Below are positions 5,400 to 27,837 of a stretch of DNA of 64,000 nucleotides, in pieces. The position numbers and the translations under genes are program-made. The stretch lies in the NCBI GenBank assembly GCA_963701015.1, contig OY969556.1, forward strand, positions 4,025,509-4,089,508, written 5' to 3'. The stretch comes from an uncultured Bacteroidota bacterium (lineage in GTDB: Bacteria > Bacteroidota > Bacteroidia > Bacteroidales > DTGW01). How positions within the stretch are numbered: position 1 is the stretch's first letter; every line of letters begins with the position of its first letter. The notes below the pieces were generated by a model. The model worked only from the letters and a program-made list of their open reading frames with translations. It did no database searches and was not told the DNA's origin.

Positions 5400-5723
5400 T
5401 TAGCATAATGTAACCCCTTCCATTAAAGCGGTTTTAATTATTCCCCTGCAATCGTCTGGTTGCCCTATTAGTACATCTATTTTCTGATCTTCCAGTTTTT
5501 CTTTTAAATGTACCAGGTATCTGATTTTTTTCCTGTATAATAAAGTTGCTTCATCCGGTAAAGGGATAACCATAAGGTCAATGTCCCCTCCGCAGGCCTG
5601 GTCGTTAACACGTGAACCGAAAAGTATTACCCTGGCTTCTTTACCAAATTCATTCCAGGCCTCCTGTACAATTATTTCTTTTTCTTTAGCGCTAATTCGC
5701 ATAGGTTTTATAGTAAAAGTCAT
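5400..5723 (-). CDS. minimal nucleotidyltransferase (MNT-type, toxin-antitoxin-associated NTase fold)
   Basis: 107-aa ORF with the LFGSRVNDQACGGDIDLMV signature (GS...DxD). No adjacent HEPN partner ORF is visible. Confidence 0.7.
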   Translation of the reverse strand: MTFTIKPMRISAKEKEIIVQEAWNEFGKEARVILFGSRVNDQACGGDIDLMVIPLPDEATLLYRKKIRYLVHLKEKLEDQKIDVLIGQPDDCRGIIKTALMEGVTLC

Positions 5724-5915
5724 ATTTCAAACAAAGATAAAAAACATTCACTGAATTAATAAATTTACGTTTGCAATGTTTCTAATCTATAAATAACCCT
5801 TCGCAAACAAGTGTTTAAGTATGGAAACTAAGGGTTGTTGCATGTATTTAAAAAAAATTGTTCTTATACTGATTAATTGTCAAAAAGTATTAAAAATGTA
5901 CCAATTGAAAAACAT
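5563..5915. repeat. direct repeat DR-A, copy 1 (about 350 bp)
   Basis: Near-identical to 9342-9627, with weaker similarity continuing to about 9695. It covers the 5' 160 bp of the MNT gene, its upstream region and a copy of the GT2 gene start. Confidence 0.9.
5819..5845 (-). repeat. duplicated 5' end of the GT2 gene (copy 2 of 3)
   Basis: GTATGGAAACTAAGGGTTGTTGCATGT matches the true start region of the 4166-5110 gene at 5086-5112. A third copy lies at 9599-9627. Confidence 0.9.
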
Positions 5916-6990
5916 TGGGAAAAGTTAACACTTCCCCGCTATTGAGGGTCTATGTCTACAGGGCAAACGCATTAAAAACGACTGTATAGGGTTAATAAAT
6001 AGCATCTTATGGCATGTTTTACTTTTTTACCTCCCTGCCCTCCTTAAAAAGGAGGGTAAACTGAGTTGTGGACTGCGAATATGATCGCCCAGTTATAGCT
6101 CCTTTTAAAGTGGTTGGGGTTAATAAAAAACAAACAAATTTTAATGCGTTTGCCCTGGCTATGTTTATGCACATGTCTCTAAATCCCATATATTTCGCCC
6201 CAATGGGGCTATTAAAATTCATTTATATTATTCTTTAAACATATCATCACTAAGTGTTTTTTAATATTTTATTGGCTCCAGAGGGGTTAAATATTTATAG
6301 ATATAAACAATTATCCTGTTATTCTAGTCCCATGGGGACGAAATATTCAAGATGTGAGTATATCCATGTCTTGTAAAGGGGAGGAAACAAATTTATTTCT
6401 TTCTCCCTCTCCGTTTGGAGAGGGTTGGGGAGAGGTCAAATTCTTTTATTCCTCTTCTTTTTGGCTTGAACCAGTTGGAGGATTAAAGGAAAACGGTGGA
6501 CGGAAAAAGGATTGAAATAATGAGCGAGGGATGTCCACTTTTGAATTTATTCTCCTTCTTTTTGGCTTGAAACCCGAAGGGCTCAACGAAGTTAACCAAA
6601 AAGAAGCAAAACTTAGCGAAGCGTTCTCATGACCGAAGGGAGTAAAGTTCAAGTTTCAAGTTTCCCCTCCTTTTATAAGAACGGCAAAGCCCTCATGACC
6701 GAAGGGAATAACGGGTTGGGGTGGTTCTTAAGGCTCGCGGATGATCGGGCAATTTAACCTCACCCTTTCTCCCTCTCCAAAAGGAGAGGGAATAAAAATT
6801 TGAGTGCTGTCGTTCACGGTTGGTACGATCTGAAAGCCAATCAGCTCGTACAAAAGGGAACCCTCTACGCCAGCTGGGGCAGCTGGCAATGAGAATATCT
6901 AAAATTATTAGGCTCTGGCATACATGGATGGTGCGAGTTTGTTGGTCAGTCAAAGGTACTGACAACATGTTCGTGCCAGTTGGTTGCTAA
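5850..6990. repeat. GC-hairpin mosaic region (modular REP/BIME/BOX-like repeats)
   Basis: A dense series of short palindromic units shared with 20.1-28.6 kb, often in opposite orientation. Examples are CTCCCTCTCC..GGAGAGGGTTGGGGAGAGG and CTTAGCGAAGCGTTCTCATGACCGAAGGGAGT. ORFs here have nonsense-like low-complexity translations. Confidence 0.85.
5959..6157. repeat. 199-bp segment bounded by a perfect 19-bp inverted repeat
   Basis: CAGGGCAAACGCATTAAAA at 5959-5977 pairs with TTTTAATGCGTTTGCCCTG at 6139-6157. The 161-bp interior contains a CCCTCCTTAAAAAGGAGGG hairpin. Confidence 0.85.
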
Positions 6991-7098
6991 ACAGATGTGA
7001 AAATTATTTCTGAATCTTATTAATTTAATTTTTTTGGCTAAAACTAAGACACAGCCGACACATCCGTGCTAGAAAGTGTATTTGTCATCTATTATTTT

Positions 7099-8277: not shown

Positions 8278-8517
8278 AGTCTGTAATTCTGTTTTTGATT
8301 TTCAAATTTACTAAAATAAAAATCATATTTTACTTTTAGTTGAATATTTAGTAAAATACAATATTACTTTTTTTGTAGCTATATATGTAGTATGGACAAC
8401 ATGTTGAGGTCAGGTTCCCTTTATTCCTTACCAATATTTTTGGCTTGCAAGCGATGCAAAATTTCAAGGGTGAAGTTATAAAATGCCTAGTAATTGTTGG
8501 CTTTAATTATAGCCAAT

Positions 8518-8598
8518 ATGTCCGCGCCAGCAAATGGATAATGAAGTTACAAACTTCAGGAATATATAGGCACTAGTTGCAGACTTGCGCCATACTGG
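8518..8598. repeat. about 82-bp direct repeat flanking the DUF4160/DUF2442 cassette (left copy)
   Basis: ATGTCCGCGCCAGCAAATGGATAATGAAGTTACAAACTTCAGGAATATATAGGCACTAGTTGCAGACTTGCGCCATACTGG is about 80% identical to 9224-9306. Confidence 0.8.
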
Positions 8599-8663
8599 CA
8601 TTTAACACTACAAATTGAGAAACCGAGGAAATTTATTTATCTTTGTATATAAAGATAGAGTTT

Positions 8664-8966
8664 ATGCCTAAATTGTATGAATATTTCGGATTGATTTTTC
8701 TATTTTACTCTCAAGAGCATGAACCGATTCATGTTCATGGGAAATATCAAGATAAGGAAAGTAAAGCTGAGATTATCTTTGAGAATGGGAAGTTTAAGGA
8801 AATTGTAATTAAAGATGTTCCAGGTAAAGCTCCATTAGATACACAAAATCTTAAAAAGTTCAAAAAAGTAATTGAATTGTACCGTGATGATATAGTTAGA
8901 AAATGGATTGACTTTTTTGTTTATAATATTGAGTTTCCATCTGAAAAAATAACAAAAAAAATATAA
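8664..8966 (+). CDS. DUF4160-family small protein
   Basis: The ORF has an EHEPIHVHGKY motif. The ATG at 8664 is preferred over the TTG at 8643. It sits 2 nt from the downstream DUF2442-like ORF. Confidence 0.65.
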   Translation: MPKLYEYFGLIFLFYSQEHEPIHVHGKYQDKESKAEIIFENGKFKEIVIKDVPGKAPLDTQNLKKFKKVIELYRDDIVRKWIDFFVYNIEFPSEKITKKI

Positions 8967-8968
8967 TT

Positions 8969-9211
8969 ATGGTCATATCGATTGATATAGCTGATTATGT
9001 AGGAGAATATAAAATTAAATTTTTATTCTCTGATGGAGTTGAGAAATTAATTGATTTCTCTGAGTTTTTAAAAGGAGCAAAGAATCCAATGACAAAAAAA
9101 TATCTTGATAAACAATTGTTCAAATCATATTCAATTAATTATGGAGATATAATTTGGAATGATTATGAAATGTGTTTCCCAATTTGGGATTTACATGAAG
9201 GGAAAATATAA
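8969..9211 (+). CDS. DUF2442-family small protein
   Basis: 80-aa ORF tightly coupled to the DUF4160 ORF. The same two-gene arrangement recurs at 25427-25877. Confidence 0.6.
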   Translation: MVISIDIADYVGEYKIKFLFSDGVEKLIDFSEFLKGAKNPMTKKYLDKQLFKSYSINYGDIIWNDYEMCFPIWDLHEGKI

Positions 9212-9223
9212 ACGCCGGCTAAA

Positions 9224-9306
9224 ATGTCCACGCAAGTAAAGGGATAATATTAAGTTATAAACTTCAAGAATATATAGGCACTAGTCGCAGATTTGTGCCA
9301 CACTAG
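9224..9306. repeat. about 82-bp direct repeat flanking the DUF4160/DUF2442 cassette (right copy)
   Basis: See 8518-8598. It contains a GGCAC...GTGCC stem. Confidence 0.8.
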
Positions 9307-9334
9307 TTATAAAAAGCGTAGTTGCAAACTACGC

Positions 9335-9502
9335 TTAGCTTGGGATAACCATAAGGTCAATGTCCCCTCCGCGGGCCTGGTCGTTAACACGTGAACCGAA
9401 AAGTATTACCCTGGCTTCTTTACCAAATTCATTCCAGGCCTCCTGTACAATTATTTCTTTTTCTTTAGCGCTAATTCGCATAGGTTTTATAGTAAAAGGC
9501 AT
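9335..9502 (-). pseudogene. truncated duplicate of the MNT nucleotidyltransferase gene (first about 54 codons)
   Basis: Encodes MPFTIKPMRISAKEKEIIVQEAWNEFGKEARVILFGSRVNDQARGGDIDLMVIPS*. It is near-identical to the 5' part of 5400-5723, and homology stops at 9342. Confidence 0.85.
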
Positions 9503-9695
9503 ATTTCAAACAAAGATAAAAAACATTCACTGAATTAATAAATTTACGTTTGCAATGTTTCTAATCTATAAATAACCCTTCGCAAACAAGTGTTTAAGCA
9601 TGGAAACTAAGGGTTGTTGCATGTGTTTTAAAAAAATTATCATTGTTACTGATTATTTGTAAAAAGTGTTATAAAAGTACAAATTGGTAAACTTA
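9342..9695. repeat. direct repeat DR-A, copy 2
   Basis: Aligns with 5563-5915. It includes the third copy of the GT2 gene start (9599-9627). Confidence 0.9.
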
Positions 9696-9706
9696 GTGAA
9701 TCTTTT

Positions 9707-9737
9707 CCCCTCCTGGGAGGGGATTGGGGTGGGTTTC
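9707..9737 (+). repeat. hairpin + TTGGGG unit (REP-like)
   Basis: CCCCTCCTGGGAGGGGATTGGGGTGGGTTTC. The same architecture occurs about 20 times in the window. Confidence 0.85.
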
Positions 9738-9759
9738 AATAGAAATTTAGACAAGCATA

Positions 9760-9903
9760 CTATACAAAACCCTGACAATATTTTAAAGAATTTACTACAA
9801 TTTGTCTAATTTCTTTTCTTGTAAATACGTCAATCCAATTAATTGTAGTAATTGTAATAAAATATAGTTTGTCGTCACTTGGAATTTTGTACTTCTCCTA
9901 CAT
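9760..9903 (-). pseudogene. relic of a Y1 (IS200/RAYT-like) tyrosine transposase N-terminus
   Basis: The minus strand reads ATG TAG then EKYKIPSDDKLYFITITTINWIDVFTRKEIRQIVVNSLKYCQ. This resembles the conserved N-terminal region of Bacteroidota Y1_Tnp/REP-associated transposases. There is a stop at codon 2, and the relic is truncated next to a REP-like unit. Confidence 0.55.
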
Positions 9904-10134
9904 AATAACTAAAAAATATGTAAAATAGGATAACTTTCGCTATTGTGAAAATTATTTCTGTATTTGAATAATTAAGAGCTATTTTGTTGAGCAGTCAAAG
10001 GCACTGACAGCATGTCCGCGCCATCGGGGGTAATTTTGCAATAGTTATAGCCTTTTTTTAATTATAATTTTATTCATAATTAAATTTTTATTCATGATAT
10101 GGACCTATAGTATAGTAATTAAATAACTACATAA

Positions 10135-11253
10135 TCATTTTTTTATTTTTAATGATTGCCTATTATTTATATAATTTACGCTTTCTTTTAAAAGTAATTT
10201 TACTTTATAAGTATGTTTTTCGGAAATGAAATAAATTAAATATGCAATAATCAAACCTATCATTAATTCAACAAAATAATATGAAATAGATTTAATACAT
10301 AAATTCTTACTCCTAGGGAATCCAAAGTATGACATTAATCCCATTAGTGGATAATGAGTCAAATATAAGCTATATGAAAATTTAGCTAATTTACTGCCTA
10401 ATTTGTCAATTGCAACTGAAAGTTTTTTCTTTGGAATTGTTGTAATTAAACTATATATTATAAAACTAGTAAATATAGCTATGAATATGATTGCAATATT
10501 ACGATTTAAGCCATTTAAATTATTAATTGTAATGCTTCTTGACTTTGAAAAAGTCTGAGATAACACAAAGGAAGCGAAAAGTAAGATAATTAGAATTACT
10601 ATTTTTAATTTCCTATATGAAATATTATTGCGAGGTAATAAAAATGCAAAAGCCCCCATGAACCAAATGAATAAAAATAATGGGTTTAATCTGATAAAAA
10701 TATATATACAAAATGCAAGAATTAAGAAGGGTAGAAGTATATAGGTATTATTTTTCCTGCAAATAACCATAATGCAACCCATTAATACATAAAACCATAC
10801 TTCGTATGACAATGACCATAAAACTACATTATAATTACAACCTGTAATTATACCCTGAGTAGCAAAGAAACTGCCCATTATATCAATATAAGGAATAGAT
10901 TTATTCATTATAATATCAATTATTACCACTAGTATTGTAGATGCAGCTAAAGGCAGTAAAATACGCACTACCCTATCTATTGAATAGGATTTTATATCTA
11001 CCTTATTGTTTAAGATTTTTTCAATTGAATTGCCCCCAACAAGAAAACCACTTAGTATAAAAAATACAACAACAGATTCTTCTCCAAACCTTGTAAGTAA
11101 ATAAAAGATTTGAACGTATAAATTATGCTGGGTTTGAGGAAGTAAACCGTATTCAACAAAGAACATACCCCTGTAATGTGCTGCCATAACAAGGAATGCT
11201 GAAATAAATCTTAATAAGTCGATCCAATAATAGTGTTTACTGCTTATATCCAT
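10135..11253 (-). CDS. acyltransferase family 3 membrane protein (O-acyltransferase)
   Basis: 372-aa polytopic ORF with an N-terminal WIDLLRFISAFLVMAAHY motif. Confidence 0.8.
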   Translation of the reverse strand: MDISSKHYYWIDLLRFISAFLVMAAHYRGMFFVEYGLLPQTQHNLYVQIFYLLTRFGEESVVVFFILSGFLVGGNSIEKILNNKVDIKSYSIDRVVRILLPLAASTILVVIIDIIMNKSIPYIDIMGSFFATQGIITGCNYNVVLWSLSYEVWFYVLMGCIMVICRKNNTYILLPFLILAFCIYIFIRLNPLFLFIWFMGAFAFLLPRNNISYRKLKIVILIILLFASFVLSQTFSKSRSITINNLNGLNRNIAIIFIAIFTSFIIYSLITTIPKKKLSVAIDKLGSKLAKFSYSLYLTHYPLMGLMSYFGFPRSKNLCIKSISYYFVELMIGLIIAYLIYFISEKHTYKVKLLLKESVNYINNRQSLKIKK

Positions 11254-11664
11254 AAACTAATCATTAATTTTAATGTTTAATATACGTTATATTATAATTT
11301 TAAATTAGAAACCTCTAAATATACAATTATTCGAATCACTTAAAAATCATTTGGGTAATAAAATGACTTTTTCCGATTACCCACATAATGTAATTTTTTA
11401 TTAAAATACTTGCTAATTCTGACACGGATATGTTGCCATTACATTGTCTTAAAATTCAAGATTCGTTGTAATTTCTTAGTTACGTCGTACTTTTCTTCCT
11501 GCTACTTGCGGTTTAATTACAACAAATATATACTATCCAGCAATTTGATAATGAAAACAACAGCAAATCATTTGCTTTTATTCTTCATCATTTTGGCTTA
11601 GACCAGTCGAAGCACAAATGGAAATTGGTAAACAGAAAAGGGATAGAAATAATGCACGAAGGCT

Positions 11665-11753
11665 GTCCACGGATTGTACGATACGAATGCCAATCTGCAC
11701 GAGCGGCGGTGACATATGCTGAAAGGTTGGCTTTGGGATGGTATATGTGGTGA
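11665..11753. repeat. 89-bp repeat family copy (inverted relative to 20579-20667)
   Basis: GTCCACGGATTGTACGATACGAATGCCAATCTGCACGAGCGGCGGTGACAT... aligns at about 75-80% with the reverse complement of 20579-20667. Confidence 0.75.
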
Positions 11754-12035
11754 CAAGATACTACTTTCAGTTGTGAACTAAGCAATGCTTTCTCAATACC
11801 AAAGGGAGTAATACGCTTCGTTAATTTGAAGGTAGATAGTTTGCATATTTAAGCTCGGCAACCCCGGGCTTTATATATTTTGAAATATTCCTTTACCAGC
11901 AAATAAACACGCAAAATTCGGTTTAAGTGTTATTTTGTTGGTTAAGGCACTTAAAACATTTCAATACCAACTGGTTACCTACTAACTTTTGAATTTCATT
12001 TTATAAGCCAAACTATAATTGCTCCTATTTCAAAG

Positions 12036-12779
12036 TTAAATTGATTTTATCATTTTGGCTGGTACTCCACCCCATAAAGTATTAGGAGGAACTGACTTTG
12101 TTAAAACACTTCCTGCAGCAATTACGGATCTTTCTCCAATTGTTACTCCAGGTAATATTGTGACTCCACTTCCAATCCAAGCGCCATTACCAATTATTAT
12201 TGCTTTTGATATTACTCCACCTTGCCATCGGGCATTAATTTCTGTTGTATAATCGTGGTCATGTGTATATATAACGCAATTAGGCCCTATTGCAACTTCA
12301 TCGCCAATACTTATATCGTCAGTAACATCTATAATTGTATTATCACCAATATTTGACCAACTTCCTATTATAAGTTTTCCGTAGTGATTTTTTTCTCTTG
12401 AAAAGATAGCACAATTGGTAGCAATACTTACATTATTTCCAAATTGCCATTTATTATTAATATATAATTTGCTTTGTGAGCCAAAACTACATTCCTTGAG
12501 TGTTTGCAATGACCCATTTGAACTAATATTTATTTCAATTGCTTTATCTAAGTTTGATCCATTACCTAATTCAAGGGTGGCTTTTTTAGATATTCTTAAA
12601 ATTACTTTAGGAGATAATATTGTATTTTTGCCGAGATATATCTTCCCTTTCCCTTCAACAATTATAGGTAAACTAAATTTTGTTTGGTTAATACCTTCAA
12701 TTTTAGATGCATTATATAACCAAAATAAATTGCGCATAAGCAATTTAATATAGTAAGTTATCAATTTTATAAGAATCAT
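12036..12779 (-). CDS. hexapeptide-repeat (LbH) O-acetyltransferase
   Basis: 247-aa ORF with C-terminal left-handed beta-helix repeats (IGDNTIIDV.., IGSGVTILPGVTIGERSVIAAGSVL). Confidence 0.8.
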   Translation of the reverse strand: MILIKLITYYIKLLMRNLFWLYNASKIEGINQTKFSLPIIVEGKGKIYLGKNTILSPKVILRISKKATLELGNGSNLDKAIEINISSNGSLQTLKECSFGSQSKLYINNKWQFGNNVSIATNCAIFSREKNHYGKLIIGSWSNIGDNTIIDVTDDISIGDEVAIGPNCVIYTHDHDYTTEINARWQGGVISKAIIIGNGAWIGSGVTILPGVTIGERSVIAAGSVLTKSVPPNTLWGGVPAKMIKSI

Positions 12780-13080
12780 AATAATTCATTTGTAAAAATT
12801 CCAAAATATAAAAAAATTATTTGCTTATTCATTTCTAGGGTTTTTGACGATATTTAATATTTTACTGTTGATATAATTAAACAATAGGTGGTTAAAAACG
12901 TTTAGTAATGTAATAGATTTAATCTTTAGAGCAATCATTTAAAACAAAAATAGCTTTATTTGGGTAAATTTGTTGCAAAGTGGATTAAATTGTTTTTAAG
13001 GAGTTTTCTCACTTTTATAAAAAGCAATTATAATTAAGACTACGGAAAATTGAATCATGACTAAATGAATAAAATATTTT

Positions 13081-13959
13081 CTAAATTTTTACCCAGCTAT
13101 CTGGCATAATATTATCTCCATTCTTGAACCATTTTTTTGGACCAACTACTATCTTATCTTTACCAACACCCAACCAAGCTCCCCACCAGCTGAAACTACT
13201 ATTGGCAATTATAAAATGTTTACATGCTGACATTAATCTTAAATCTTCATGAGGTGTTTGATTATTATAATCATCTATATATGTGGCATTGGCCAATTTT
13301 ATATTTTTTTTAGCCCATTCCGTATCATCTGAAAAAATAAAAAAATGAAGATTTTCTATGCGTTCATTTAAGTAATCAATCGCTTTATGGTAATAATCTA
13401 TATTGCAAAGTTCTAAATTCGTCACTGCATGCTTATCGGTTAAGTAATCACCTCTTCGAATATGCATACCTACTGCATTATCTTGGCATTGAATTTTATC
13501 CAATAGATTTTGATTGTGATTATCGGGTTGGTTCTTATGAGAGAAATCATTTCTGATGATTTGGGCATATTCATGAAAATACAATTCATTTTGCCAATAA
13601 CCATGGAGATAGCAAGTTCTCTTTAACCCAAACAATCGCTCGTCAAAGGTTCTATCTACTTCTGTTATAAAACTTCTGTATACAAGTGGCAGAATATATT
13701 TTTCAAATTGCCTTATTCTTCTTAGAATAAAATTTGGGCGTGTATATCGCAATATCTCTTGAACAGTTGCTATGTTTTCGTTTATATTAAAATTATTAAG
13801 CGCATACGTTCGTTTAGCAATATCCACATCAGGTTCATAACTGTAAAAAGACAAATCTAATTTAAAAGGTTTGTTAAGATATAACGACAAGCTTTTTGCA
13901 AATGCATACTGGAACATTTGGTTTCCCAAACCGTAATGTATTTTTACATATATCATCAT
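13081..13959 (-). CDS. GT11-family alpha-1,2-fucosyltransferase
   Basis: Carries the GLGNQMFQYAFAKSL, HIRRGDY and SNSSFSWWGAWL motifs. Confidence 0.85.
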   Translation of the reverse strand: MMIYVKIHYGLGNQMFQYAFAKSLSLYLNKPFKLDLSFYSYEPDVDIAKRTYALNNFNINENIATVQEILRYTRPNFILRRIRQFEKYILPLVYRSFITEVDRTFDERLFGLKRTCYLHGYWQNELYFHEYAQIIRNDFSHKNQPDNHNQNLLDKIQCQDNAVGMHIRRGDYLTDKHAVTNLELCNIDYYHKAIDYLNERIENLHFFIFSDDTEWAKKNIKLANATYIDDYNNQTPHEDLRLMSACKHFIIANSSFSWWGAWLGVGKDKIVVGPKKWFKNGDNIMPDSWVKI

Positions 13960-13964
13960 AAAAT

Positions 13965-14951
13965 TTAAATGAATAACCTGAATATTTTCTTAACCTTTAC
14001 ACCTATTGTTATTATTGGGCCAGTTTTTGAGTAAATTTTAAATATATACAAGGCACATTGTATCCATGATAATTCTAAGGCTCTTCTCATCAACCAAATC
14101 GTTTCATTAATGTGTTTCATACTTAGACCTCTGTAATGGTTTGTTACCACCATTAAAAAATTTGCGCGAAGAGCCTTGAGCATTTGGTCATATGAAATCT
14201 CACTATTGTTATATCTTAAATATTGAAAATGTTTAACTAACCATTTAATAAATTGAAAATAACCTTTTATAGTTTTATCTCTGTTTTTATAAGCATTCTT
14301 AGTAATATTAACATCACTTCTTCTCCAATATAAAATAGCATCGGGTATAATTTGAATACCATTTTCTTTAGAAAACAGGATAGAAGTAGCCCAATCTGCT
14401 GATTGTCCAAAATCGGTATTTACAAACCCTCCATTTGATTCATAGACTTTACGCGAAAATATATGATCAGGCATTGTGTTTCCCCTTTTACCAATTAGAA
14501 TATGATATGCCATTGATTCCGAAGATTCATAATCTGGCCCAATAGCTGAAGGCTTGCCACTCTTCCCATTTCCATCAATGACTGTTGTATTGAACCGAAA
14601 CACATCGACATGACATATTTTTTTTATTTCATAAAATTTTTCAACACAATTTGAATCCATTATATCGTCATCAGAAAACAACCAAATCCATTTTTCCGAT
14701 TTTGATAACTCCACACATCTATTCCACTGACCAACTAAATCCTTACTTCCTAAATTGTCCGAATACCTATGGTAAACTATTGGCAAATCATTAAATTCAT
14801 CAATAATGGATTTAAGATTATCAGGGCTGTTGTCATCACCAATGTATATGTTGAAATCCTTTCGCGTTTGTTTTCTTAATGATTCTATACTCTCACGAAA
14901 ATATTTTGCTTTATAGGCAGGTATAATTATGGCTAACTCAACATTATTCAT
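13965..14951 (-). CDS. GT2-family glycosyltransferase
   Basis: N-terminal IIIPAYKAKYF...YIGDDNSPD and a DDD motif. Confidence 0.8.
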   Translation of the reverse strand: MNNVELAIIIPAYKAKYFRESIESLRKQTRKDFNIYIGDDNSPDNLKSIIDEFNDLPIVYHRYSDNLGSKDLVGQWNRCVELSKSEKWIWLFSDDDIMDSNCVEKFYEIKKICHVDVFRFNTTVIDGNGKSGKPSAIGPDYESSESMAYHILIGKRGNTMPDHIFSRKVYESNGGFVNTDFGQSADWATSILFSKENGIQIIPDAILYWRRSDVNITKNAYKNRDKTIKGYFQFIKWLVKHFQYLRYNNSEISYDQMLKALRANFLMVVTNHYRGLSMKHINETIWLMRRALELSWIQCALYIFKIYSKTGPIITIGVKVKKIFRLFI

Positions 14952-14952
14952 T

Positions 14953-15777
14953 TCATAAAAAAAACTTAAATTTTTTTAAAAATTTATACACAAATAAATT
15001 TTCAATCCGTAATATCCGTCCTTTGTAAAATTCTAATTTTTTATACAGAGTGATTGGATCTCCAAGCATTTCATATATAAAGTCGGCATGTTTTTTACTT
15101 GCATAACTTTGTGCTTTAATAGTATATTCATTTGGAATATTAACGAACATTGAACTTTCCTTTATCCGGTAAAAAAAACCAACATAGTCCAATCTATATA
15201 CTACATTGGAATTTTTTTCATTTTTCAATATATTTATCCAAAACTCCCAATCTTCATGCCCGTCGCGCATTTCACCATCATATCCTCCAACTCTCTCCCA
15301 TTCTGATTTTCTAAAGAAGGCTGTACAAAAAATCAAATTAGTATATGCTAATGTTTTAAAATCAAATGGTGGCAGATTCCACACACCTGATTTACCTCCA
15401 AAGTATTCAGCTTTACAATAAACCAATTTTGTCTGCTTATTTTCTACAAAATGACGAACGGCAAGTAATAGATAATCTTTGCCAATTTTATCATCTGCAT
15501 CCAAAGGAAGTATCAACTCACCTTTTGCATTTTTAATCCCTTCATTTCTTGCACTTGGTAATCCACCATTTGTTTTAATTACATATTTAATACGTTTATC
15601 TTTTAAAATATATTGTCCAGCAACTTCTTCAGTTTCATCTGGCGAACCATCATTAACAATAATACATTCCCAGTTTTCATAGCTTTGTGCCAACACTGAA
15701 TCAATTGCAACGGGTAAATATTGTGCTTGCTTATAACAGGGTATAATAACCGAGACTAAATGTTCAATCATTGTCAA
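14953..15777 (-). CDS. GT2-family glycosyltransferase
   Basis: SVIIPCYKQAQYL...IIVNDGSPDET and LDADD motifs. Confidence 0.85.
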   Translation of the reverse strand: MTMIEHLVSVIIPCYKQAQYLPVAIDSVLAQSYENWECIIVNDGSPDETEEVAGQYILKDKRIKYVIKTNGGLPSARNEGIKNAKGELILPLDADDKIGKDYLLLAVRHFVENKQTKLVYCKAEYFGGKSGVWNLPPFDFKTLAYTNLIFCTAFFRKSEWERVGGYDGEMRDGHEDWEFWINILKNEKNSNVVYRLDYVGFFYRIKESSMFVNIPNEYTIKAQSYASKKHADFIYEMLGDPITLYKKLEFYKGRILRIENLFVYKFLKKFKFFL

Positions 15778-15779
15778 TA

Positions 15780-16550
15780 TTAATTATGAAATATTTTCTT
15801 AAAAAACTTTTTTGAATAATACCAAAATGGGTTTGTCATTAATTTTATCTTCAACTCTTCCATTTCTTCATAATCTTTCAAATAGGTACCGAACTGTTTC
15901 TGCAAAAAAAGTTTCTTTTCATTTTTTATTAGTTCATCATTTGATTGGTATGAGCTTATCCCAGTGTGGTTAAAAACAGTAACTTCGGTATTTACATATT
16001 TATAACTGGCATTTAATATACATACGGTATAAATAAAAAATTCCCAGTCTGATGTAATTTTATTTTGCTCGTTATACGGGTTTCTGTTCAACAATTCTCT
16101 TCTAATTAAGGTAGCCGGATGGGGTAATGTATCTTTTAATAAATAACCAAAAGTAATTAAGGGGGGATAATATTTTATCCATTTTCTCGTACCATCGTCA
16201 ACTAATAAATTTCCGTAAATCAAATCTTTATCATTCCCTCTATTCAGAAGTTTATATAAAGATTCATTGTCAACGAAATAATCGCCACTATTTAAAAAAA
16301 TGCAATATTCCCCAATTGCTTTTGCAATGCCTTTGTTCATGGCATTATAAATTCCCTTGTCGGGTTCGCTTACCCAGTAAGTTATTTTATCAAAATATTC
16401 TTTAATAATATCTATACTTCCATCGGTACTGGCTCCATCAATTATAATATATTCGTAATCGGTAAAAGTTTGAGTAACTACGCTTTCAATAGTTTTGTGA
16501 AGACCAGTGGCATTATTAAGGTTAATAGTTATAATGGAGAGTTTGGGCAT
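15780..16550 (-). CDS. GT2-family glycosyltransferase
   Basis: LSIITINLNNATGL...IIIDGASTDGS motif. Confidence 0.85.
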   Translation of the reverse strand: MPKLSIITINLNNATGLHKTIESVVTQTFTDYEYIIIDGASTDGSIDIIKEYFDKITYWVSEPDKGIYNAMNKGIAKAIGEYCIFLNSGDYFVDNESLYKLLNRGNDKDLIYGNLLVDDGTRKWIKYYPPLITFGYLLKDTLPHPATLIRRELLNRNPYNEQNKITSDWEFFIYTVCILNASYKYVNTEVTVFNHTGISSYQSNDELIKNEKKLFLQKQFGTYLKDYEEMEELKIKLMTNPFWYYSKKFFKKIFHN

Positions 16551-16737
16551 TAAATTACTTTTTCAATTATTATTGTACTATTTAAGGTATAATTAAATAA
16601 ATTCCGCATTTAATATGCAATTTTATAAATATTTTAATAATGGCAAATTGTGATAAAGATTATTAGAGCAAAAATAATTGTAATTTTGAATATATTAGCT
16701 CTGTTACATTTTTTTGAAGATATTTTTAAATTAATTT

Positions 16738-17823
16738 ATGGGAATAATTAGAATATTATTAGCAATTGCTGTAATATTGACTCATTCAGGACCAATTTAT
16801 GGATTTAATTATATTGACGGCTTAATGGCTGTACAATCCTTTTTTATAATTTCCGGGTTTTATATGTCTTTAATTTTGAATGAAAAATATAATGGTGTAA
16901 AATCATATAAACTTTTTATTTCAAATAGATTGTTAAGATTGTTTCCAACTTATTTTTTAATAATAATTATTACTTTAATTGTGGCAACTATATTTAACAA
17001 TTTGGGAATACAACAAATTATAATTTCAGGGTTTTCTAATTTAAATTTCTTTTCGAAGTTTTATTTGATTTTTATAAACACTTTTATTGTTGGCCAGGAT
17101 ACTACATTATTTCTTGGATTTAACCTAAATGGATCGTTACATTTTATAAAAGATTTTCATAATTCAAATCCACAGGTTTGGAAATTTTTAATTTGTCCTC
17201 AGGCTTGGTCATTGAGTTTAGAGTTAATGTTTTATGCAATTGCACCATTTTTAGTTAAAAAGGACCTACGTTTTATTTTAGTTATAATGATTTTATCATT
17301 CATATTACGGCTATTTATTTATAAAAATGGATTGTATTATGATCCTTGGACTTATCGGTTTTTCCCAATTGAGTTGTTTTTCTTTCTATTAGGGAATATT
17401 TCATACAGGATTTATAAGTATATAAAGGAAATAAAATTCCCAAAGGAATTTGGAATGGATATGCTCATATTTATTTTGCTTTTACTATTTCTTTTCAATT
17501 TTATATCTGTAAAATATTACATTAAACAATATGCTTTTTATTTATTTTTCACTTTAGCAATTCCATTTATTTTTCATTATTCTAAAAACTATAAATTTGA
17601 TAGATTTATAGGCGAATTATCATATCCAGTGTATTTATCTCATAGTTTCATAATTACTTTTTGCATCCCAATTCTTTTTCATTTCTTTGGGTATAATTCT
17701 TCTTTAAAAAGTATAATTGCAGTTGTAGGGTCAATTATTTTTTCCTATTTAATTATTTTACTTCTAGTAAAGAGAATAGATGTATATAGAGAAAAAAGAG
17801 TTCAAAAATTTCAACTTAAGTAA
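16738..17823 (+). CDS. acyltransferase family 3 membrane protein
   Basis: 361-aa polytopic ORF. It is the only plus-strand gene inside the glycan locus. Confidence 0.7.
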   Translation: MGIIRILLAIAVILTHSGPIYGFNYIDGLMAVQSFFIISGFYMSLILNEKYNGVKSYKLFISNRLLRLFPTYFLIIIITLIVATIFNNLGIQQIIISGFSNLNFFSKFYLIFINTFIVGQDTTLFLGFNLNGSLHFIKDFHNSNPQVWKFLICPQAWSLSLELMFYAIAPFLVKKDLRFILVIMILSFILRLFIYKNGLYYDPWTYRFFPIELFFFLLGNISYRIYKYIKEIKFPKEFGMDMLIFILLLLFLFNFISVKYYIKQYAFYLFFTLAIPFIFHYSKNYKFDRFIGELSYPVYLSHSFIITFCIPILFHFFGYNSSLKSIIAVVGSIIFSYLIILLLVKRIDVYREKRVQKFQLK

Positions 17824-17863
17824 ACAAAATGGTTATATAAGTTTTGCCAAAATTAAATAATTA

Positions 17864-18760
17864 TTATTTCAATCGTTCAAGAACTTGCTCAACATTTTTT
17901 GTAGCTATCAAATTTACATAAGGATAATGTAACCGTTTAGTATCTTCGGTTAATGTATTATTTTTTGAATTATATACGTACCATTTATAACCAAAAGAAA
18001 CAAAATTATCATAAAGTTCATAACAATTTGTACCTGCTGCAAATAAATTACTTTCAGTAAATTCAACCATAAAAACAGGCGCATCCTGCTTACTTAAAAG
18101 TTCTTTAGCCCCTTTTAAAACCTCCATTTCCCAACCTTCAACATCCATTTTAATAAGTGCAATATCTTTTGAATAGATATTATTTTCAGCAAGGTAACTA
18201 TCAAGTGTTGTTACATTAATTTCAATTTTTTTATCAAAACTAATTTCAGAATTTTGAGCAAATGTATTCCAGGCATCGTGGCCATCAGTTGAAACATTTA
18301 AAAATAATTTTCCTTTATTTGAAGATAAGCCAATGTTATAGGCGGTTATTATATTTTGGAATTCATTTAATTCAATATTCTCTTTTAATCGTGAAAATGT
18401 TATGGGTGTAGGTTCAAAGGCATATATTCTACCCTTAGGGGAAATAATTTGGGCTGCATGTAAAGAAAAAAGTCCAATGTTTGCGCCAATATCAATAAAA
18501 GTATCTGCAGGCTTGAGAAATTTTCTCAAAAATATTATTTCATCTTGTTCAAAACCTGTATAAATGAGATTTGATAAAATGCTGTCTTTATAAAAGTTAA
18601 TTTGTAATTTATCATTGAGTTTACCTACAAAACTTGTGTTATTTCCAAATAAGTTATTCCAATTATCTTCTTCAATTTTCTTTTTTTTAATATTTTGTTT
18701 TTTAATATAATTATTCGCTCGGTTAGCAATTGCATATGCAATTCTTAAATCTAAATTCAT
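17864..18760 (-). CDS. FkbM-family methyltransferase
   Basis: FIDIGANIGLFSL...IYAFEPTPITF motif. It lies directly downstream of wzt. Confidence 0.8.
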   Translation of the reverse strand: MNLDLRIAYAIANRANNYIKKQNIKKKKIEEDNWNNLFGNNTSFVGKLNDKLQINFYKDSILSNLIYTGFEQDEIIFLRKFLKPADTFIDIGANIGLFSLHAAQIISPKGRIYAFEPTPITFSRLKENIELNEFQNIITAYNIGLSSNKGKLFLNVSTDGHDAWNTFAQNSEISFDKKIEINVTTLDSYLAENNIYSKDIALIKMDVEGWEMEVLKGAKELLSKQDAPVFMVEFTESNLFAAGTNCYELYDNFVSFGYKWYVYNSKNNTLTEDTKRLHYPYVNLIATKNVEQVLERLK

Positions 18761-18774
18761 TTATTTTAAATTTT

Positions 18775-20112
18775 TTAAATAGTTTCTGAATTAATCCAAT
18801 CAATTTTTGGCATTATTACACCAGGCCTGTTGTCGGCATATTGTTTGTTAAGTCCATCAATGTTAATAATAGAAAAGGGATATATAACTTTTTCAAAGCT
18901 TATCCATTTTACATTATGTATTCCAATGGCAATATTAATAATATAGGAACCAGGTTTTAAAAAATTTGAAGGAATTATTGCAGTTGATTTATAATTTCCA
19001 ATTTCAAAAGTCTCTGTTCGTATAATATCATCATGAAAAGTTCTGAAAAGTGTAAGCCCACTTTTAGAATCAATTAAATCAAAACCTATTCTTAGCCCAC
19101 TTATTTTTTTCTTTACAAAATATTCATATTCAATAATTATTTCATCTTTTGTATAAAACTCATTAGCATTTGATCCTTTCTGATATATATTTAACTTTTT
19201 AAGTTTAAAATATTCATCATCTGGTAAATTTATTTCTGCCAAAGAATCTCTGCTTTCTTTATTATTATTGGCAGATGATAAATAATATTCAATACCTTCA
19301 TTAACATTACCATTATAAACTGTTGTTCCGTTTTGAAGTACATATAAATTATTGCATAAATTCGCAATAGCAGTCATATTATGGCTCACAAATATAACAG
19401 TTCGGCCTTGTCCCTGGCTTACTTCCTGCATTTTGCCAATGGCTTTTTTCTGGAACTCGGCATCGCCCACGGCCAATACTTCATCAACCACCAATATTTC
19501 CGGCTCCAAATGGGCTGCCACTGCAAAGCCCAGGCGCACGGTCATACCGCTACTGTAACGTTTTACGGGAGTGTCAATGTATTTTGCTACGCCGGCAAAA
19601 TCAACAATTTCGTCCAGCTTCTTGTCAATTTCCCACTTGCGCATGCCCATTATGGTTCCATTCACGTAAATGTTTTCGCGGCCGGTCATTTCGGGGTGAA
19701 AGCCCGTGCCAACTTCCAGTAGGCTGGCAATACGGCCTTTTACTTTTATACTGCCCGTGGTGGGAGAGGTTACCTTGGAGAGTATTTTTAGCAAGGTGCT
19801 TTTACCGGCACCGTTTTTGCCTATAATACCCAGCACTTCGCCCTGCTTAACTTCAAGGTTAATATCCTTTAAAGCCCAAACTAATTCGGCCTCCCCCCTG
19901 CCCCCTCCATGAGAGGGGGAGTTAGCCTTCCCCCCTTTGGGGGGATTGAGGGGGGCTAATATATTTGTCTGCCCTACTTTGGTATAAGGGTCGGGTTGCC
20001 CAAGCAGGTTCATGCGCCACCAGCGGTTAAGGTCGTGGCTAAGCGTGCCGGTGCCTATTTGCCCCAGGCGGTAAAGTTTCGAGAGGTTTTCAATTTTAAT
20101 TACGGTGGACAT
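18775..20112 (-). CDS. wzt: O-antigen/glycan ABC exporter ATP-binding protein Wzt, with a C-terminal glycan-binding-type domain
   Basis: Walker A GKNGAGKSTLLK, signature YSSGMTVRL and Walker B ILVVDE, plus an extra C-terminal domain of about 190 aa. It carries an in-frame GC-rich palindromic insertion at 19888-19956. Confidence 0.85.
   Translation of the reverse strand: MSTVIKIENLSKLYRLGQIGTGTLSHDLNRWWRMNLLGQPDPYTKVGQTNILAPLNPPKGGKANSPSHGGGRGEAELVWALKDINLEVKQGEVLGIIGKNGAGKSTLLKILSKVTSPTTGSIKVKGRIASLLEVGTGFHPEMTGRENIYVNGTIMGMRKWEIDKKLDEIVDFAGVAKYIDTPVKRYSSGMTVRLGFAVAAHLEPEILVVDEVLAVGDAEFQKKAIGKMQEVSQGQGRTVIFVSHNMTAIANLCNNLYVLQNGTTVYNGNVNEGIEYYLSSANNNKESRDSLAEINLPDDEYFKLKKLNIYQKGSNANEFYTKDEIIIEYEYFVKKKISGLRIGFDLIDSKSGLTLFRTFHDDIIRTETFEIGNYKSTAIIPSNFLKPGSYIINIAIGIHNVKWISFEKVIYPFSIINIDGLNKQYADNRPGVIMPKIDWINSETI
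19888..19956. repeat. REP-like double-hairpin unit inserted in frame within wzt
   Basis: CCCCCTC-catga-GAGGGGG and CCCCCC-ttt-GGGGGG followed by ATTGAGGGGGG. On the coding strand it is translated as ILAPLNPPKGGKANSPSHGGGRGEAE. Confidence 0.8.
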
Positions 20113-20775
20113 TGTGTAAATTACAAATTACAAAGGACAATTTGCAAAATTAGCGAATTTATACCAAAACGGAAAATGAAAAAGGGAAAAGGCCTCTCCC
20201 CAACGCTACTCCCTTCGGTCGTGAGAACGCTGCGCTTAGTTCTCCCAAGGAGAGGGAGAAAGATAAAAAATAATTTCTTAAAGTCCCTTTCTTTAGGAAA
20301 GGGTTGGGGATAGGCTACTTTAAAGAGCGGTGGCCAGATCATCCGCGTAAGCCAGCGTTGGCTTTGAGCGAGGGGTTTCGGATGATCTTGAATTTTACTC
20401 CCTTCGGTCATGAGAACGCTTCGCTAAGTTTTGCTTCTTTTTGTGTCAAGACAAAAAGAAGAGGAATAAAAGAAATTGGCCTCTCCCCAGCCCTCCCCTA
20501 AGGAGAGGGAGAAAGATAAAAAATTGTGAATTTACTTTTCTTTGCCTGCCATACATAGAAAAGGTAACAAAAGAAAAATCACTACGGATACCATCCCCAA
20601 GCCAATCTATTCGCACATGCCACCGCCACTTGTGCCGATTGGCTTTCGGATCGCACTATCCGTGGACGTCAACGCGCAAAGCAATTTAATGAATTATCTT
20701 CTTATCATGCGAAGCATGAAAGAGTGTGAGCCAGATCATCCGCGCGAGCCAGTGTTGGCTTTGAGCGAGGGGTAT
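20113..20775. repeat. GC-hairpin mosaic region upstream of wzt
   Basis: Contains a vestigial heptamer tract (20166-20192), the GATCATCCG...CGGATGATC long hairpin (twice), the 32-bp mini-insert (20208-20239, 20397-20428), hairpin+TTGGGG units and the 89-bp repeat (20579-20667). Confidence 0.85.
20145..20164 (-). promoter_or_regulatory. conserved promoter-like box (TAATTTTG on the coding strand), 33 nt upstream of the wzt ATG
   Basis: The plus strand reads CAAAATTAGCGAATTTATAC, so the coding strand carries TAATTTTG, which matches the Bacteroidota -7 consensus TAnnTTTG. The box recurs upstream of 5 other starts. Confidence 0.55.
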
Positions 20776-20841
20776 AGTTTCGAGAGGTTTTACCTTCGGT
20801 GAGAACGCTTCGCTTAGTTCAATTTTAATTACGGTTGACAT
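20776..20841 (-). pseudogene. duplicated 5' end of wzt (38 bp of CDS) interrupted by a 28-bp mini-insertion
   Basis: AGTTTCGAGAGGTTTT[ACCTTCGGTGAGAACGCTTCGCTTAGTT]CAATTTTAATTACGGTTGACAT compared with the uninterrupted 20075-20112. Confidence 0.9.
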
Positions 20842-21183: not shown

Positions 21184-21199
21184 CCCCTCCCGGGAGGGG
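21184..21199 (-). terminator. candidate hairpin terminator or insulator (perfect 16-bp palindrome)
   Basis: CCCCTCCCGGGAGGGG lies 18 nt downstream of the stop of the 21218-22006 ORF. There is no clear U-tract. Confidence 0.3.
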
Positions 21200-24550: not shown

Positions 24551-24835
24551 ATAATATTTGTGAGATTGTTGTAATTTGAAACCCACCCTTTAGCCCCTCC
24601 CGGGAGGGGAAATATTTTTTCGTATCACACAAAGTGTGAAAGAGCGATGGCTTGATCATCCGAGCGAGCCTTAAGAACCACCCATTAGCCCCTCCTTTAA
24701 AAGGAGGGGAAACTGATTTGTTAACTTTACTCGACTTCGTCTAATGAACTAAGCGAAGCGTTCTCACGAGTTTTACGAGTAGCTTAGCCTTTGGCGTTCT
24801 CACGACCAAAGGGAATAAATCGCTTCGCTTAGACA
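24551..24835. repeat. conserved 285-bp GC-hairpin block (copy a)
   Basis: Collinear with 28126-28410, and partly with 26221-26345 and 21142-21215. It contains CCCCTCCCGGGAGGGG, TCACAC-aaa-GTGTGA, GATCATCCG... and CCCCTCCTTTAAAAGGAGGGG. Confidence 0.9.
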
Positions 24836-25400
24836 GCCCGCAGCTGAAATTGTATTTTTTTTATCACACTTTGTGTGAAAGAGCGTGAACCAGATCATCC
24901 GCGCGAGCCAGCGTGGGCATTGAGCGAGGGGTTTCGGATGATCTTGAATTTTACTCCCTTCGGTCATGAGAACGCTTCGCTAAGTTTTGCTTCTTTTTGG
25001 TTCATGCCAAAAAGAAGGGGAATGAATGCAAAAGATTTGCTGTTGTATTTATTATATGCAATGTTGGCTAGTAGCGATTTATTTTTCTTTGCTTGCCATG
25101 CAAAGAAAAGGTAACAAAACTTAGCGATATGGTTTACTCACTGTGGTCATGAGAACGCGTTGCTAAGTTCATGAACGAAGGGAGCAAAGGGGTTGGGGAT
25201 AGGCCTTTTGGCTTTCGGACCGCACCATCTGTGGACTCCCTACGCGCAAAGCTCAAAACTCTTTACAGTTTACAACCATTTACCGTTAACCGTTTTCCTT
25301 TTATCCGTCAAATGGTTCAAGCCAAAAATAAGAGGAATGCTGGAAAAAGCTTTATTTGTAAATTAAAATCAGCTTTAACCGCCTATCGAGGAAATGAAGT
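24836..25400. repeat. GC-hairpin mosaic region
   Basis: Same modules as 20113-20775, in similar order. Confidence 0.85.
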
Positions 25401-26222: not shown

Positions 26223-26900
26223 ATAATATTTGTGAGATTGTTGTAATTTGAAACCCGCCCCAACCCCTCCCGGGAGGGGAAATATTTTTTCGTATCACAC
26301 GAAGTGTGAAAGAGCAGCGGCCGGATCATCCGCGCGAGCCAGCGTTGGCTTTTAGCGAGGGGTTTCGGATGATCTTGAATTTTTGCTTCTTTTTGGTTCA
26401 GGCCAAAAAGTAGAGGAATAAATGAAATTGGCCTCTCCCCAGCCCTCTCCTAAAGAGAGGGAGTAGGAAAGTATTAAAAAATTTGGTGCAAAATAAATTA
26501 TTTCATAAAACTTCTTTCTTTTGGAACTTAGCGAAACGGTCTCATGACCGAAGTGAGTAAAGGGGTTTGGGATAGGCACTTTGGCTTTCAGATCGCACTA
26601 TCCGTGGACGACAGCGCGCAATACTCAAGACTTTTAACTGTATAAAACCATTTACCATTCACCGTTTTCCTTTTATCTGTCAAATGGTTCAAGACAAAAA
26701 GAAGAGGAATAAAATTTAGGAGAATTGTGCTCTCAATCCCCCAGCCCCCTTTTCAAAGGGGGAAAGCCCTGCTTTACAGTATAAAACCATTTACCTTTCT
26801 CCGTTTTCCTTTTATCCGTCAAATGGTTCAGGCCAAAAAGTAGAGGAATGCAAAGCTTTTGTAATACGCGTTTAAACTATCTTCATGAACGAAGTGTATA
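26223..26900. repeat. conserved hairpin block (copy b) plus GC-hairpin mosaic
   Basis: 26223-26345 matches 24553-24670. It is followed by an empty site for the 32-bp mini-insert (T-run 26380-26384), hairpin+TTGGGG units and two AACCATTT...AAATGGTT units. Confidence 0.85.
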
Positions 26901-26967: not shown

Positions 26968-27837
26968 TTATACGGTATCAATAAAACTTCTTTCAGTACG
27001 GTTAAAGATAATTATACCTAAAAACAAAACCACCAGGGTAAAAACTGTAGTGTATATTATCCCGGTTGAACTATGGGTGCCTGAACCCAGGAATCCGTAT
27101 TTAAATGTTTCTAAAATTGGTGTCATAGGATTAGCCATAATGAAAGGGCGTAATTTGCCATGAATCATAGAAACAGGGTAAATTACAGGGGTTGCATACA
27201 TAAGTAATTGAACTCCAAATGTTATAAGAAATGTCAGGTCGCGGTATTTAGTTGTTAGCGAAGTGAAAATAATCCCGAATCCCAAGCCAAGTCCACCCAT
27301 CAATAAAATAAGATACGGTGTTAACAACATATAAATATTGGGATGAATTGACAAATTGTGTTTTAATAAATAATAAATAAATACAGCTAAAAACAAACCA
27401 AATTGGATGCCAAATTTTATTAATCCCGATAAAACTTTTGACATTGGTGAAACAAGCCTTGGGAAATAGACCTTACCAAAAACATTGGCATTATCGGTAA
27501 ATGTCTTAGATGTTATACTAAAGCATTCTGAAAAATAATTCCAAACAATAATACCTGCAAGATAGAATAGCATCATGGGAATACCATCGGTAGGCATTTT
27601 GGCAATATTACCGAAAACCACAATATATATAGCCGTGGTTAAAATAGGTTGAAGTATAAACCAAATTGGACCAAGAACGGTTTGTTTATAAACCGTAACA
27701 ATGTCACGTTTAACAAACATGGTAAGTAAGTCACGATACTGCCAAATTTCTTTCAGGTTAATATCGAGAAGATGTTTCTTAGGCTGTATTATTTGAGTCC
27801 ATTGCTCTTCCGTAGTATTAAATTTTTCTTCGGGCAT
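26968..27837 (-). CDS. wzm: ABC-2 type glycan/O-antigen exporter permease Wzm
   Basis: 289-aa ORF with 6 predicted TM segments and a typical N-terminus (...EIWQYRDLLTMFVKRDIVTVYKQTVLGPIWFILQP). Confidence 0.85.
   Translation of the reverse strand: MPEEKFNTTEEQWTQIIQPKKHLLDINLKEIWQYRDLLTMFVKRDIVTVYKQTVLGPIWFILQPILTTAIYIVVFGNIAKMPTDGIPMMLFYLAGIIVWNYFSECFSITSKTFTDNANVFGKVYFPRLVSPMSKVLSGLIKFGIQFGLFLAVFIYYLLKHNLSIHPNIYMLLTPYLILLMGGLGLGFGIIFTSLTTKYRDLTFLITFGVQLLMYATPVIYPVSMIHGKLRPFIMANPMTPILETFKYGFLGSGTHSSTGIIYTTVFTLVVLFLGIIIFNRTERSFIDTV

Follow-up and report, generated by a model that had tools for sequence, protein, structure and literature searches.

A probable REPtron remnant of TnpAY1 subclass 2.6 in a repeat-ridden polysaccharide locus of an uncultured Bacteroidota bacterium

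The minus strand at 9748-10025 of the window (the whole stretch of DNA that was analyzed, 64 kb) very probably carries the remnant of a REPtron, i.e. a gene for a REP-associated tyrosine transposase (RAYT) and its flanking REP hairpins, of the Bacteroidota-specific TnpAY1 subclass 2.6 (RAYT group 5). We put the probability of this reading at roughly 0.88. The RAYT gene bears two independent lethal lesions, a nonsense codon at position 2 and the loss of its catalytic three quarters, and the fragment that is left, here called the relic, encodes nothing functional today. It is an ordinary decayed mobile-element gene and a new example of a known object, a decayed REPtron in a repeat-ridden polysaccharide locus. 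A pseudogene that is invisible to ORF callers and an orphaned REP are now on record, and the abundant CCCCTCC hairpins of the locus should not be credited to the relic's transposase.

Reading frame and lesions of the relic

Translation of window positions 9740-9915 on the minus strand yields FLVIM*EKYKIPSDDKLYFITITTINWIDVFTRKEIRQIVVNSLKYCQGFV*YACLNF (asterisks are stops), just as an earlier note on this DNA had read it, with an ATG followed by TAG and then open sequence at 9903-9760. The parts of the relic are as follows.

9903-9901 (-): ATG of the relic (translation)
9900-9898 (-): TAG directly after the ATG (translation)
9898-9903 (-): ATG and TAG together, nonsense at ancestral codon 2 (translation and alignment register)
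9897-9763 (-): open stretch of 45 codons (translation)
9772-9897 (-): 42 codons, EKYKIPSDDKLYFITITTINWIDVFTRKEIRQIVVNSLKYCQ, with homology to subclass 2.6 RAYTs over residues 3-44 of the latter (phmmer, family profile, NF047646)
9762-9760 (-): TAG closing the open stretch (translation)
9748-9771 (-): putative degenerate tail GFV*YACL (weak tblastn alignment)

Inside the 45 open codons there is no in-frame ATG, GTG or TTG, which is why the relic is absent from the mechanical list of open reading frames. This list is empty in the frame concerned, and the prediction that ORF callers would miss the relic was thus correct. In the phmmer alignments described below, residue 1 of the query corresponds to residue 3 of the matched proteins and most matches place query residues 1-42 on protein residues 3-44, so that the TAG sits at the exact place of ancestral codon 2. 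Relatives encode Ser (91 of 132) or Gly (35 of 132) at this position, and the TAG may derive from the Ser codon TCG in a single step (TCG to TAG).

Clear homology stops at ..KYCQ, that is at codon 44 (coordinate 9772). When the full-length proteins from loci L008 and L003 are used in tblastn, a weak alignment is carried on to 9748, corresponding to about residue 56. Here, GFV*YA-CL of the relic faces ..KGLIVFAYCL (residues ~47-56) with weak residual similarity, two small deletions and the stop at 9760-9762. The tail 9748-9771 is possibly the last trace of the RAYT gene, ending just before the HuH motif. For the remaining ~125-135 residues, nothing similar was found in the 64-kb window, neither by tblastn with the peptide and five full-length relatives nor by the family HMM in six frames. 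The relic does not contain the HuH motif NH[LIV]H, its similarity ending at about residue 44-56 with no other profile match in the window, and none of the six frames of the window contains the catalytic tyrosine motif YIH[QN]NP or the WQ motif. Since the fragment stops before the HuH motif and the window holds no C-terminal remnant, the RAYT gene is dead. A displaced 3' half elsewhere in the window was considered and rejected on the basis of tblastn and the six-frame HMM search; tblastn and the family HMM did not find a RAYT paralog within the 64 kb either. The good preservation of the 42 codons suggests that the decay is not ancient.

It is extremely unlikely that the gene still functions, be it by readthrough of the TAG, with the TAG as a mere sequencing error, or as a 45-residue DNA-binding or regulatory peptide. 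Such a reading could draw on the 42 homologous codons, which run without internal stop and keep all conserved residues, and on several relatives that retain the N-terminal ~45-57 residues yet lose the catalytic core. However, the same TAG is present in an independent assembly, Logan contig L161 (run ERR11718638), which is 100% identical to positions 9569-20233 of the window. No alternative in-frame start codon is available, and the HuH and Tyr motifs are missing from the whole window. Two short Logan contigs identical to the window were found in a search with two neighbouring proteins. A functional mini-protein, as might be read from the many short, N-terminal-only relatives among the phmmer matches, was rejected as mostly an effect of clustering at 50% identity: an excess of short relatives is expected when aberrant fragments form clusters of their own, and about 123 of the 139 genes detected in genome loci are full length.

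In loci L013, L017 and L080 and proteins P0013, P0027 and P0082, the core from HuH to Tyr has been lost by truncation or internal deletion and the N-terminal ~45-57 residues have been kept. Some of the internally deleted relatives also retain the C-terminal tail. Loss just after ..YCQ..KGL recurs among the relatives, as in the relic.

Homology and family assignment

A phmmer search with the 45-residue peptide against 1.84 billion representative proteins returned 756 matches at E<=1e-3, the best of them at E=7.2e-11 with 64% identity. The closest relatives are 64-72% identical to the relic; scans of genome and metagenome collections gave no relative above 68% identity. Nor did these scans retrieve an orthologous intact locus at the relic's position, and the ancestral state at this position is therefore reconstructed rather than observed. 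From the same kinds of collections, 159 loci with relatives (758 kb) were gathered by means of an eight-sequence alignment, and a family profile of 182 positions was built from 118 intact proteins with HxH and Y.H.NP motifs. Out of 3570 six-frame fragments of the window, the relic matches this profile with 67 bits (E=2.9e-19, positions 3-44), while all 3569 others score E>1. The relic is ~69% identical to the family consensus and retains all invariant or near-invariant N-terminal columns (K4, Y5, F15, T17, T19, W23, D25, F27, R29 and C43). The suggestion that the peptide represents the strand-helix region at the N-terminus of a Y1/RAYT transposase of Bacteroidota is confirmed by phmmer and the family profile, and the pattern put forward for it, YF.TF....W.DVFTR......I..SL.YCQ, agrees with the family consensus YFVTLTVVDWIDVFTRKEYKEIVVDSLKYCQ.

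The earlier note had looked to a match with PF01797 or a RAYT for a decision, and the outcome is mixed. PF01797 does not match the fragment, as Pfam gives no match at all for the 45-residue peptide. The RAYT model NF047646 does match and is the only NCBIfam model to do so, albeit at E=8.4e-4 with 19.2 bits versus a cut-off of 80 (peptide residues 7-42 on profile positions 7-42). Failure at both thresholds reflects the length of the fragment. A word-index homologue search with the peptide gave no candidate and phmmer against the PDB gave nothing. With PF01797 failing and NF047646 at 19 bits, the family assignment leans on phmmer, on the custom profile and on transitive homology. The longer phmmer hits (141-193 aa), among them the intact protein P0140, pass Pfam PF01797. 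Full-length homologues reach 66-99 bits on NF047646 (REP_Tyr_transpos) versus 20-29 bits on the transpos_IS200 model, P0140 (99.4 bits) being the only one of them to attain the 80-bit cut-off of the former. An IS200-type identity was rejected on account of these scores and of the Y.H.NP motif.

That an AT-rich intergenic translation resembles a short conserved motif by chance is vanishingly improbable. The shortness of the relic (45 aa), the lack of a Pfam match and the empty word-index search could be quoted in favor of chance. It is refuted by the phmmer result (E=7e-11 against 1.84e9 proteins, with 756 matches in one consistent register), by the family profile, on which the relic stands apart from every other fragment of the window, and by the correct cognate hairpin upstream of the relic.

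The relatives are proteins of 176-196 aa with [SN]H[LIVA]H, (F/L)WQ and Y[IL]H[NQ]NP(V) motifs. They reside in Bacteroidota, including Bacteroidales, Marinilabiliales, Pedobacter, Mucilaginibacter, Hymenobacter and Flammeovirga, with the exception of one MAG labelled Janthinobacterium. Most of the sampled genomes contributed one locus each, and no IS ends were seen. Subclass 2.6 has been described as a Bacteroidetes group with a mean length of 179 aa and the motifs NH[LIV]H, WQ and YIH[QN]NP (Quentin et al., 2018, PMC6006769); it is equivalent to group 5 in the RAYT classification of Bertels et al. (2017, PMC5581495). Judged by their sequences, the relatives of the relic match this subclass. 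The relic derives from subclass 2.6 and is no functional member of it.

The cognate hairpin and its copies in the window

The intact relatives have short GC-rich hairpins on both flanks of the gene. In the MSDKYKI and MSEKYKIW clades, the N-termini of which are like that of the relic, the upstream unit is of the form (GCT)GGCGCG-stem-loop-stem-CGTGCC and the downstream unit is its reverse complement, GGCACG-stem-loop-stem-CGCGCC(AGC). Units of the GGCGCG..CGTGCC type were counted by regular expression combined with a stem check. At least 37 of 117 intact loci have such a unit no more than 250 nt from the gene, compared with only 10 units in the rest of these loci (466 kb). The comparison across genomes yields a usable consensus, GGCGCG-stem-loop-stem-CGTGCC, with the forward type upstream and the inverse type downstream of Bacteroidota group-5 RAYTs, which could aid the annotation of REPtrons in this phylum. 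A control that compared direct and inverted flank matches was set aside, as it is not independent when hairpins are palindromic. Owing to a G.T wobble among the foot pairs, the two strands of a unit are not identical. Enzymes of the HUH/Y1 superfamily act on single-stranded DNA, and a wobble that marks the strand would fit such a mode of action.

In the window, units of the GGCGCG..CGTGCC type amount to one full and three partial or degenerate copies. They are given here together with the leader of the relic.

9998-10025 (-): upstream cognate REP, forward type, GATGGCGCGGACAtgcTGTCAGTGCC (one-mismatch match and architecture in relatives)
9904-9997 (-): leader from the REP to the former RAYT start codon (sequence reading)
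6940-6980 (-): degenerate second REP copy, ACTGGCACGAACAtgtTGTCAGTACC (repeat D7, 83% identity to 9978-10023)
8518-8531 (-): half REP with perfect 5' foot and stem, GCTGGCGCGGACAT, no 3' arm (sequence)
9224-9237 (-): degenerate half REP, ACTTGCGTGGACAT, paralogous to the copy at 8518-8531 (repeats D3/D5)

The core of the upstream REP, GGCGCGGACAtgcTGTCAGTGCC at 10000-10022 (-), is one base off GGCGCGGACANNNTGTCCGTGCC, and 0 such matches are expected in shuffled sequences. Its stem GGACA/TGTCC is identical in loci L011 and L160. The hairpin lies 96 nt from the ATG of the relic, a distance that amounts to 43-216 nt in 26 intact loci, and it has the forward orientation of the upstream units of intact relatives. 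One pair of the stem is broken by an internal G/A mismatch, and the folding energy is -6.7 kcal/mol; restoring the C would bring it to -10.8 kcal/mol. The hairpin could instead be a dispersed copy that is there by chance; its orientation, its distance and its stem argue against this. Downstream of the relic, an inverted GGCACG..CGCGCC unit is missing and a CCCCTCC-type unit and a nucleotidyltransferase fragment are found instead. With the downstream REP missing, this locus displays only the upstream side of the two-sided arrangement of a REPtron.

The degenerate copy at 6940-6980 has the same C-to-A stem mutation as the copy at 10 kb and folds no better than shuffled sequence (-2.9 kcal/mol, z=-0.09). 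Of the leader, a segment of ~30 nt (9944-9973) recurs at 6996-7025 (repeat family D12).

Some further hairpins in the window partly resemble RAYT-flanking REPs. Repeats of ~75 nt at 20322-20396, 20719-20793, 24878-24952 and 26309-26383 (+) form a long hairpin, AGATCATCCG...CGGATGATCT, and carry GCTCGCGCGGATGATC on the minus strand, resembling the foot of a RAYT-type REP. A perfect 10-bp hairpin, GCTAAGCGTAGTTtgcAACTACGCT, is present as a single copy in the window at 9315-9339 (-) (-9.3 kcal/mol, z=-4.3); in its GCTnnGCG foot and its tgc loop it is similar to the hairpins that flank RAYTs in other lineages of Bacteroidota. Every foot-bearing unit found in the window is on the minus strand, which is also the strand that encodes the operon and the relic.

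The CCCCTCC/GGAGGGG units

The earlier note located a hairpin with TTGGGG at 9707-9737, and its presence is confirmed. The plus-strand sequence at 9706-9733 is TCCCCTCC-tg-GGAGGGGA and then TTGGGGTGGG, and it belongs to a unit that recurs in the window.

9703-9739 (-): 37-nt CCCCTCC-type unit at the truncation junction, TTGAAACCCACCCCAATCCCCTCCCAGGAGGGGAAAA (comparison of copies)
6039-6055, 6406-6423, 6772-6789, 9707-9722: CCCCTCC-type units of the first repeat island
19901-19944, 21184-21199, 24594-24709, 26264-26279, 26444-26460, 26745-26762, 28264-28284: CCCCTCC-type units of the second repeat island

The unit at the junction starts 9 nt past the last trace of the relic and folds at -6.6 kcal/mol. 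Altogether, the 64 kb contain 13 units in which a C-rich box (..CCCACCCC..) precedes CCCCTCC-loop-GGAGGGG, all of them within two islands of repeats, one at 6.0-9.7 kb and the other at 19.9-28.3 kb. Searched at gathering thresholds, Rfam did not match anywhere in the whole window, so that none of its hairpin units is a known RNA family.

The relic had been proposed to be what remains of the transposase that seeded the CCCCTCC/GGAGGGG and TTGGGG units, its decay explaining an orphaned repeat invasion. The vicinity of the junction unit to the end of the relic and the clustering of the 13 units in the same repeat-ridden islands are in line with this. In addition, RAYTs and REPs co-evolve as lineage-specific pairs according to Quentin et al. 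(PMC6006769), so a lineage-specific switch of substrate is conceivable. Still, we consider the proposal very unlikely. The 159 RAYT-bearing loci (758 kb) contain only ~6 CCCCTCC-type units, as opposed to 13 in the 64-kb window, and none of these loci has one at the usual RAYT-flanking position; a single unit lies 174 nt upstream in L065. The relatives are flanked by GGCGCG..CGTGCC hairpins and not by CCCCTCC units, and it is a hairpin of the former kind that the relic keeps, with both its position and its orientation being canonical. Moreover, the unit next to the relic recurs in degenerate form at ~5.94 kb, where it begins a paralogous nucleotidyltransferase segment, which implies that it travels with that segment rather than with the RAYT gene. 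The notion that the decayed RAYT was the origin of the adjacent REP-like units is thus not supported. The evidence points to the CCCCTCC/TTGGGG units as an independent family of repeats, distinct from the relic's cognate REP. On present evidence, the RAYT would not have acted on these units, which dominate the locus.

CCCCTCC-like units also turn up sporadically in loci of other Bacteroidota (L065, L126 and L141).

The truncation junction and a possible history

Directly beyond the junction unit lies a piece of another gene.

9342-9702 (-): duplicated 5' piece of a nucleotidyltransferase gene, comprising its leader and 55 codons from the start (repeat D1, alignment, Pfam NTP_transf_2 on both copies)

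Positions 9342-9641 and 5563-5862 form a 300-nt direct repeat with 98% identity; the rest is ~68% identical. The ~68% homology reaches ~100 nt further upstream. In both copies it begins at a CCCCTCC-type hairpin, and the hairpin of the copy at 5.5-6.0 kb is degenerate. The nucleotidyltransferase open reading frames are found at 5400-5723 (-) and 9335-9502 (-); of the two copies, the one at 9.3-9.6 kb is truncated and a pseudogene. The segment 9342-9702 lies where the last three quarters of the RAYT gene and the downstream REP would be expected. Its other end, at 9342, abuts the perfect hairpin GCTAAGCGTAGTTtgcAACTACGCT, where the truncated copy breaks off. In the patchwork between 8.3 and 10.1 kb, segment boundaries coincide with hairpin units. 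Repeat-mediated rearrangement is known for REP elements in enterobacteria, and the coincidence of boundaries and hairpins would fit such a process.

In reconstructing the history of the site, we infer the order of events, the mechanism of rearrangement and the substrate specificity of the lost enzyme. The ancestral REPtron would have consisted of an intact gene of ~185 codons followed by GGCACGGACA-NNN-TGTCCGCGCC, located in the interval from the acyltransferase gene (10135-11253) to the DUF4160/DUF2442 pair. By analogy with its family, the intact enzyme would have bound and cleaved single-stranded hairpins of the GGCGCG...CGTGCC type. One lesion is the nonsense codon at RAYT position 2. The other is the loss of everything from just before HuH to the stop codon, ~125-135 codons including the catalytic Tyr, and the downstream inverted REP was lost together with this 3' part. 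In place of the lost part there are now the unrelated 37-nt CCCCTCC-type unit and then the duplicated 5' piece of the nucleotidyltransferase gene. We take the truncation to result from a rearrangement (duplication/insertion or deletion) with an end point at a hairpin unit. What survives of the REPtron is the upstream REP at 10000-10022 with its one stem mismatch, the 96-nt leader, the ATG and ~44-56 N-terminal codons.

Two wider readings go beyond this history, namely that the hairpins of subclass 2.6 make up one coherent REP class or that the RAYT gene was destroyed by a second, RAYT-independent hairpin family; that either holds we regard as doubtful. In the first case, the class may be defined by the feet 5'-GCTGGCGCG ... 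CGTGCC-3', a strand-marking G.T wobble and lineage-specific stems, and the window would then show the end state of such a REPtron. In the second case, the 37-nt CCCCTCC units may mediate duplications and deletions in the polysaccharide locus and may thereby have destroyed the RAYT gene; if so, one repeat family killed the mobilising enzyme of another.

Comparison with known systems

Like members of subclass 2.6, the relic has an upstream hairpin, and its N-terminal 42 residues align with profile positions 3-44; unlike them, it has neither the HuH, WQ and Tyr motifs nor a downstream hairpin, and its second codon is a stop. Quentin et al. (PMC6006769) report "atypical" secondary structures on the flanks of subclass 2.6 genes, with further copies in the genome, and the flanking hairpins of the relatives examined here likewise occur elsewhere in the respective genome. 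Whereas "atypical" comes without a consensus in the text consulted, the loci studied here share the feet GGCGCG and CGTGCC and the G.T wobble.

The E. coli enzyme TnpAREP (YafM, PDB 4ER8) and the family of the relic are both HUH single-tyrosine enzymes, and a family profile built from eleven members matches 4ER8 at E=1e-8 over the WQ...Y..NP region. The layout of the REPtron, with a gene bracketed by inverted hairpins, is also shared. E. coli REPs have the 5' guide tetranucleotide GTAG, whereas the Bacteroidota units have the feet GCTGGCGCG and CGTGCC and no GTAG. Subclass 2.6 has been reported not to conserve the residues that recognize GTAG (PMC6006769). With TnpA of the IS200/IS605 family (IS608; homologue PDB 2EC2), the family shares the Y1 HUH superfamily and Pfam PF01797, and the eleven-member profile matches the IS200-type transposase 2EC2 at E=0.006. 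The Tyr motif of the relic's homologues is Y..NP (Y.H.NP) and not the Y...Q of these transposases.

REP insertions into tnpAREP genes of subclass 2.4 (PMC6006769) are comparable insofar as a small hairpin repeat sits at the break of the frame. The relic differs in two respects: its gene never resumes, there being no 3' part in the window, and the unit at its junction comes from a family other than the gene's own REP.

The surrounding polysaccharide locus

The relic sits in a minus-strand locus for polysaccharide biosynthesis, of the ABC-transporter-dependent kind, with the following marker genes.

18775-20112: Wzt
26968-27837: Wzm
29943-30545: UpxY-like NusG gene

Several glycosyltransferases, an acetyltransferase and two Acyl_transf_3 genes are also encoded, and toxin-antitoxin-like and defence-like genes as well as many small repeats are interspersed. 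The genes for Wzt and Wzm are separated by a gap of ~7 kb, which is filled by repeats and by AbiEii-toxin, Schlafen/AlbA_2 and HATPase_c_4/HTH genes. Four tandem arrays with a period of 7 nt (GAAAACG or GAGAAGG-like) are situated at about 22.5-23.0, 24.2-24.6, 25.9-26.3 and 27.9-28.1 kb, and each of them adjoins the same set of longer dispersed repeats. Closer to the relic, the DUF4160/DUF2442 pair at 8643-9211 (+) is bracketed by direct repeats of ~95 nt (8502-8596 and 9208-9304). These repeats are 64-88% identical, each carries one of the half REP feet (GCTGGCGCGGACAT and ACTTGCGTGGACAT, respectively), and the pair looks like a small cassette bounded by repeats.
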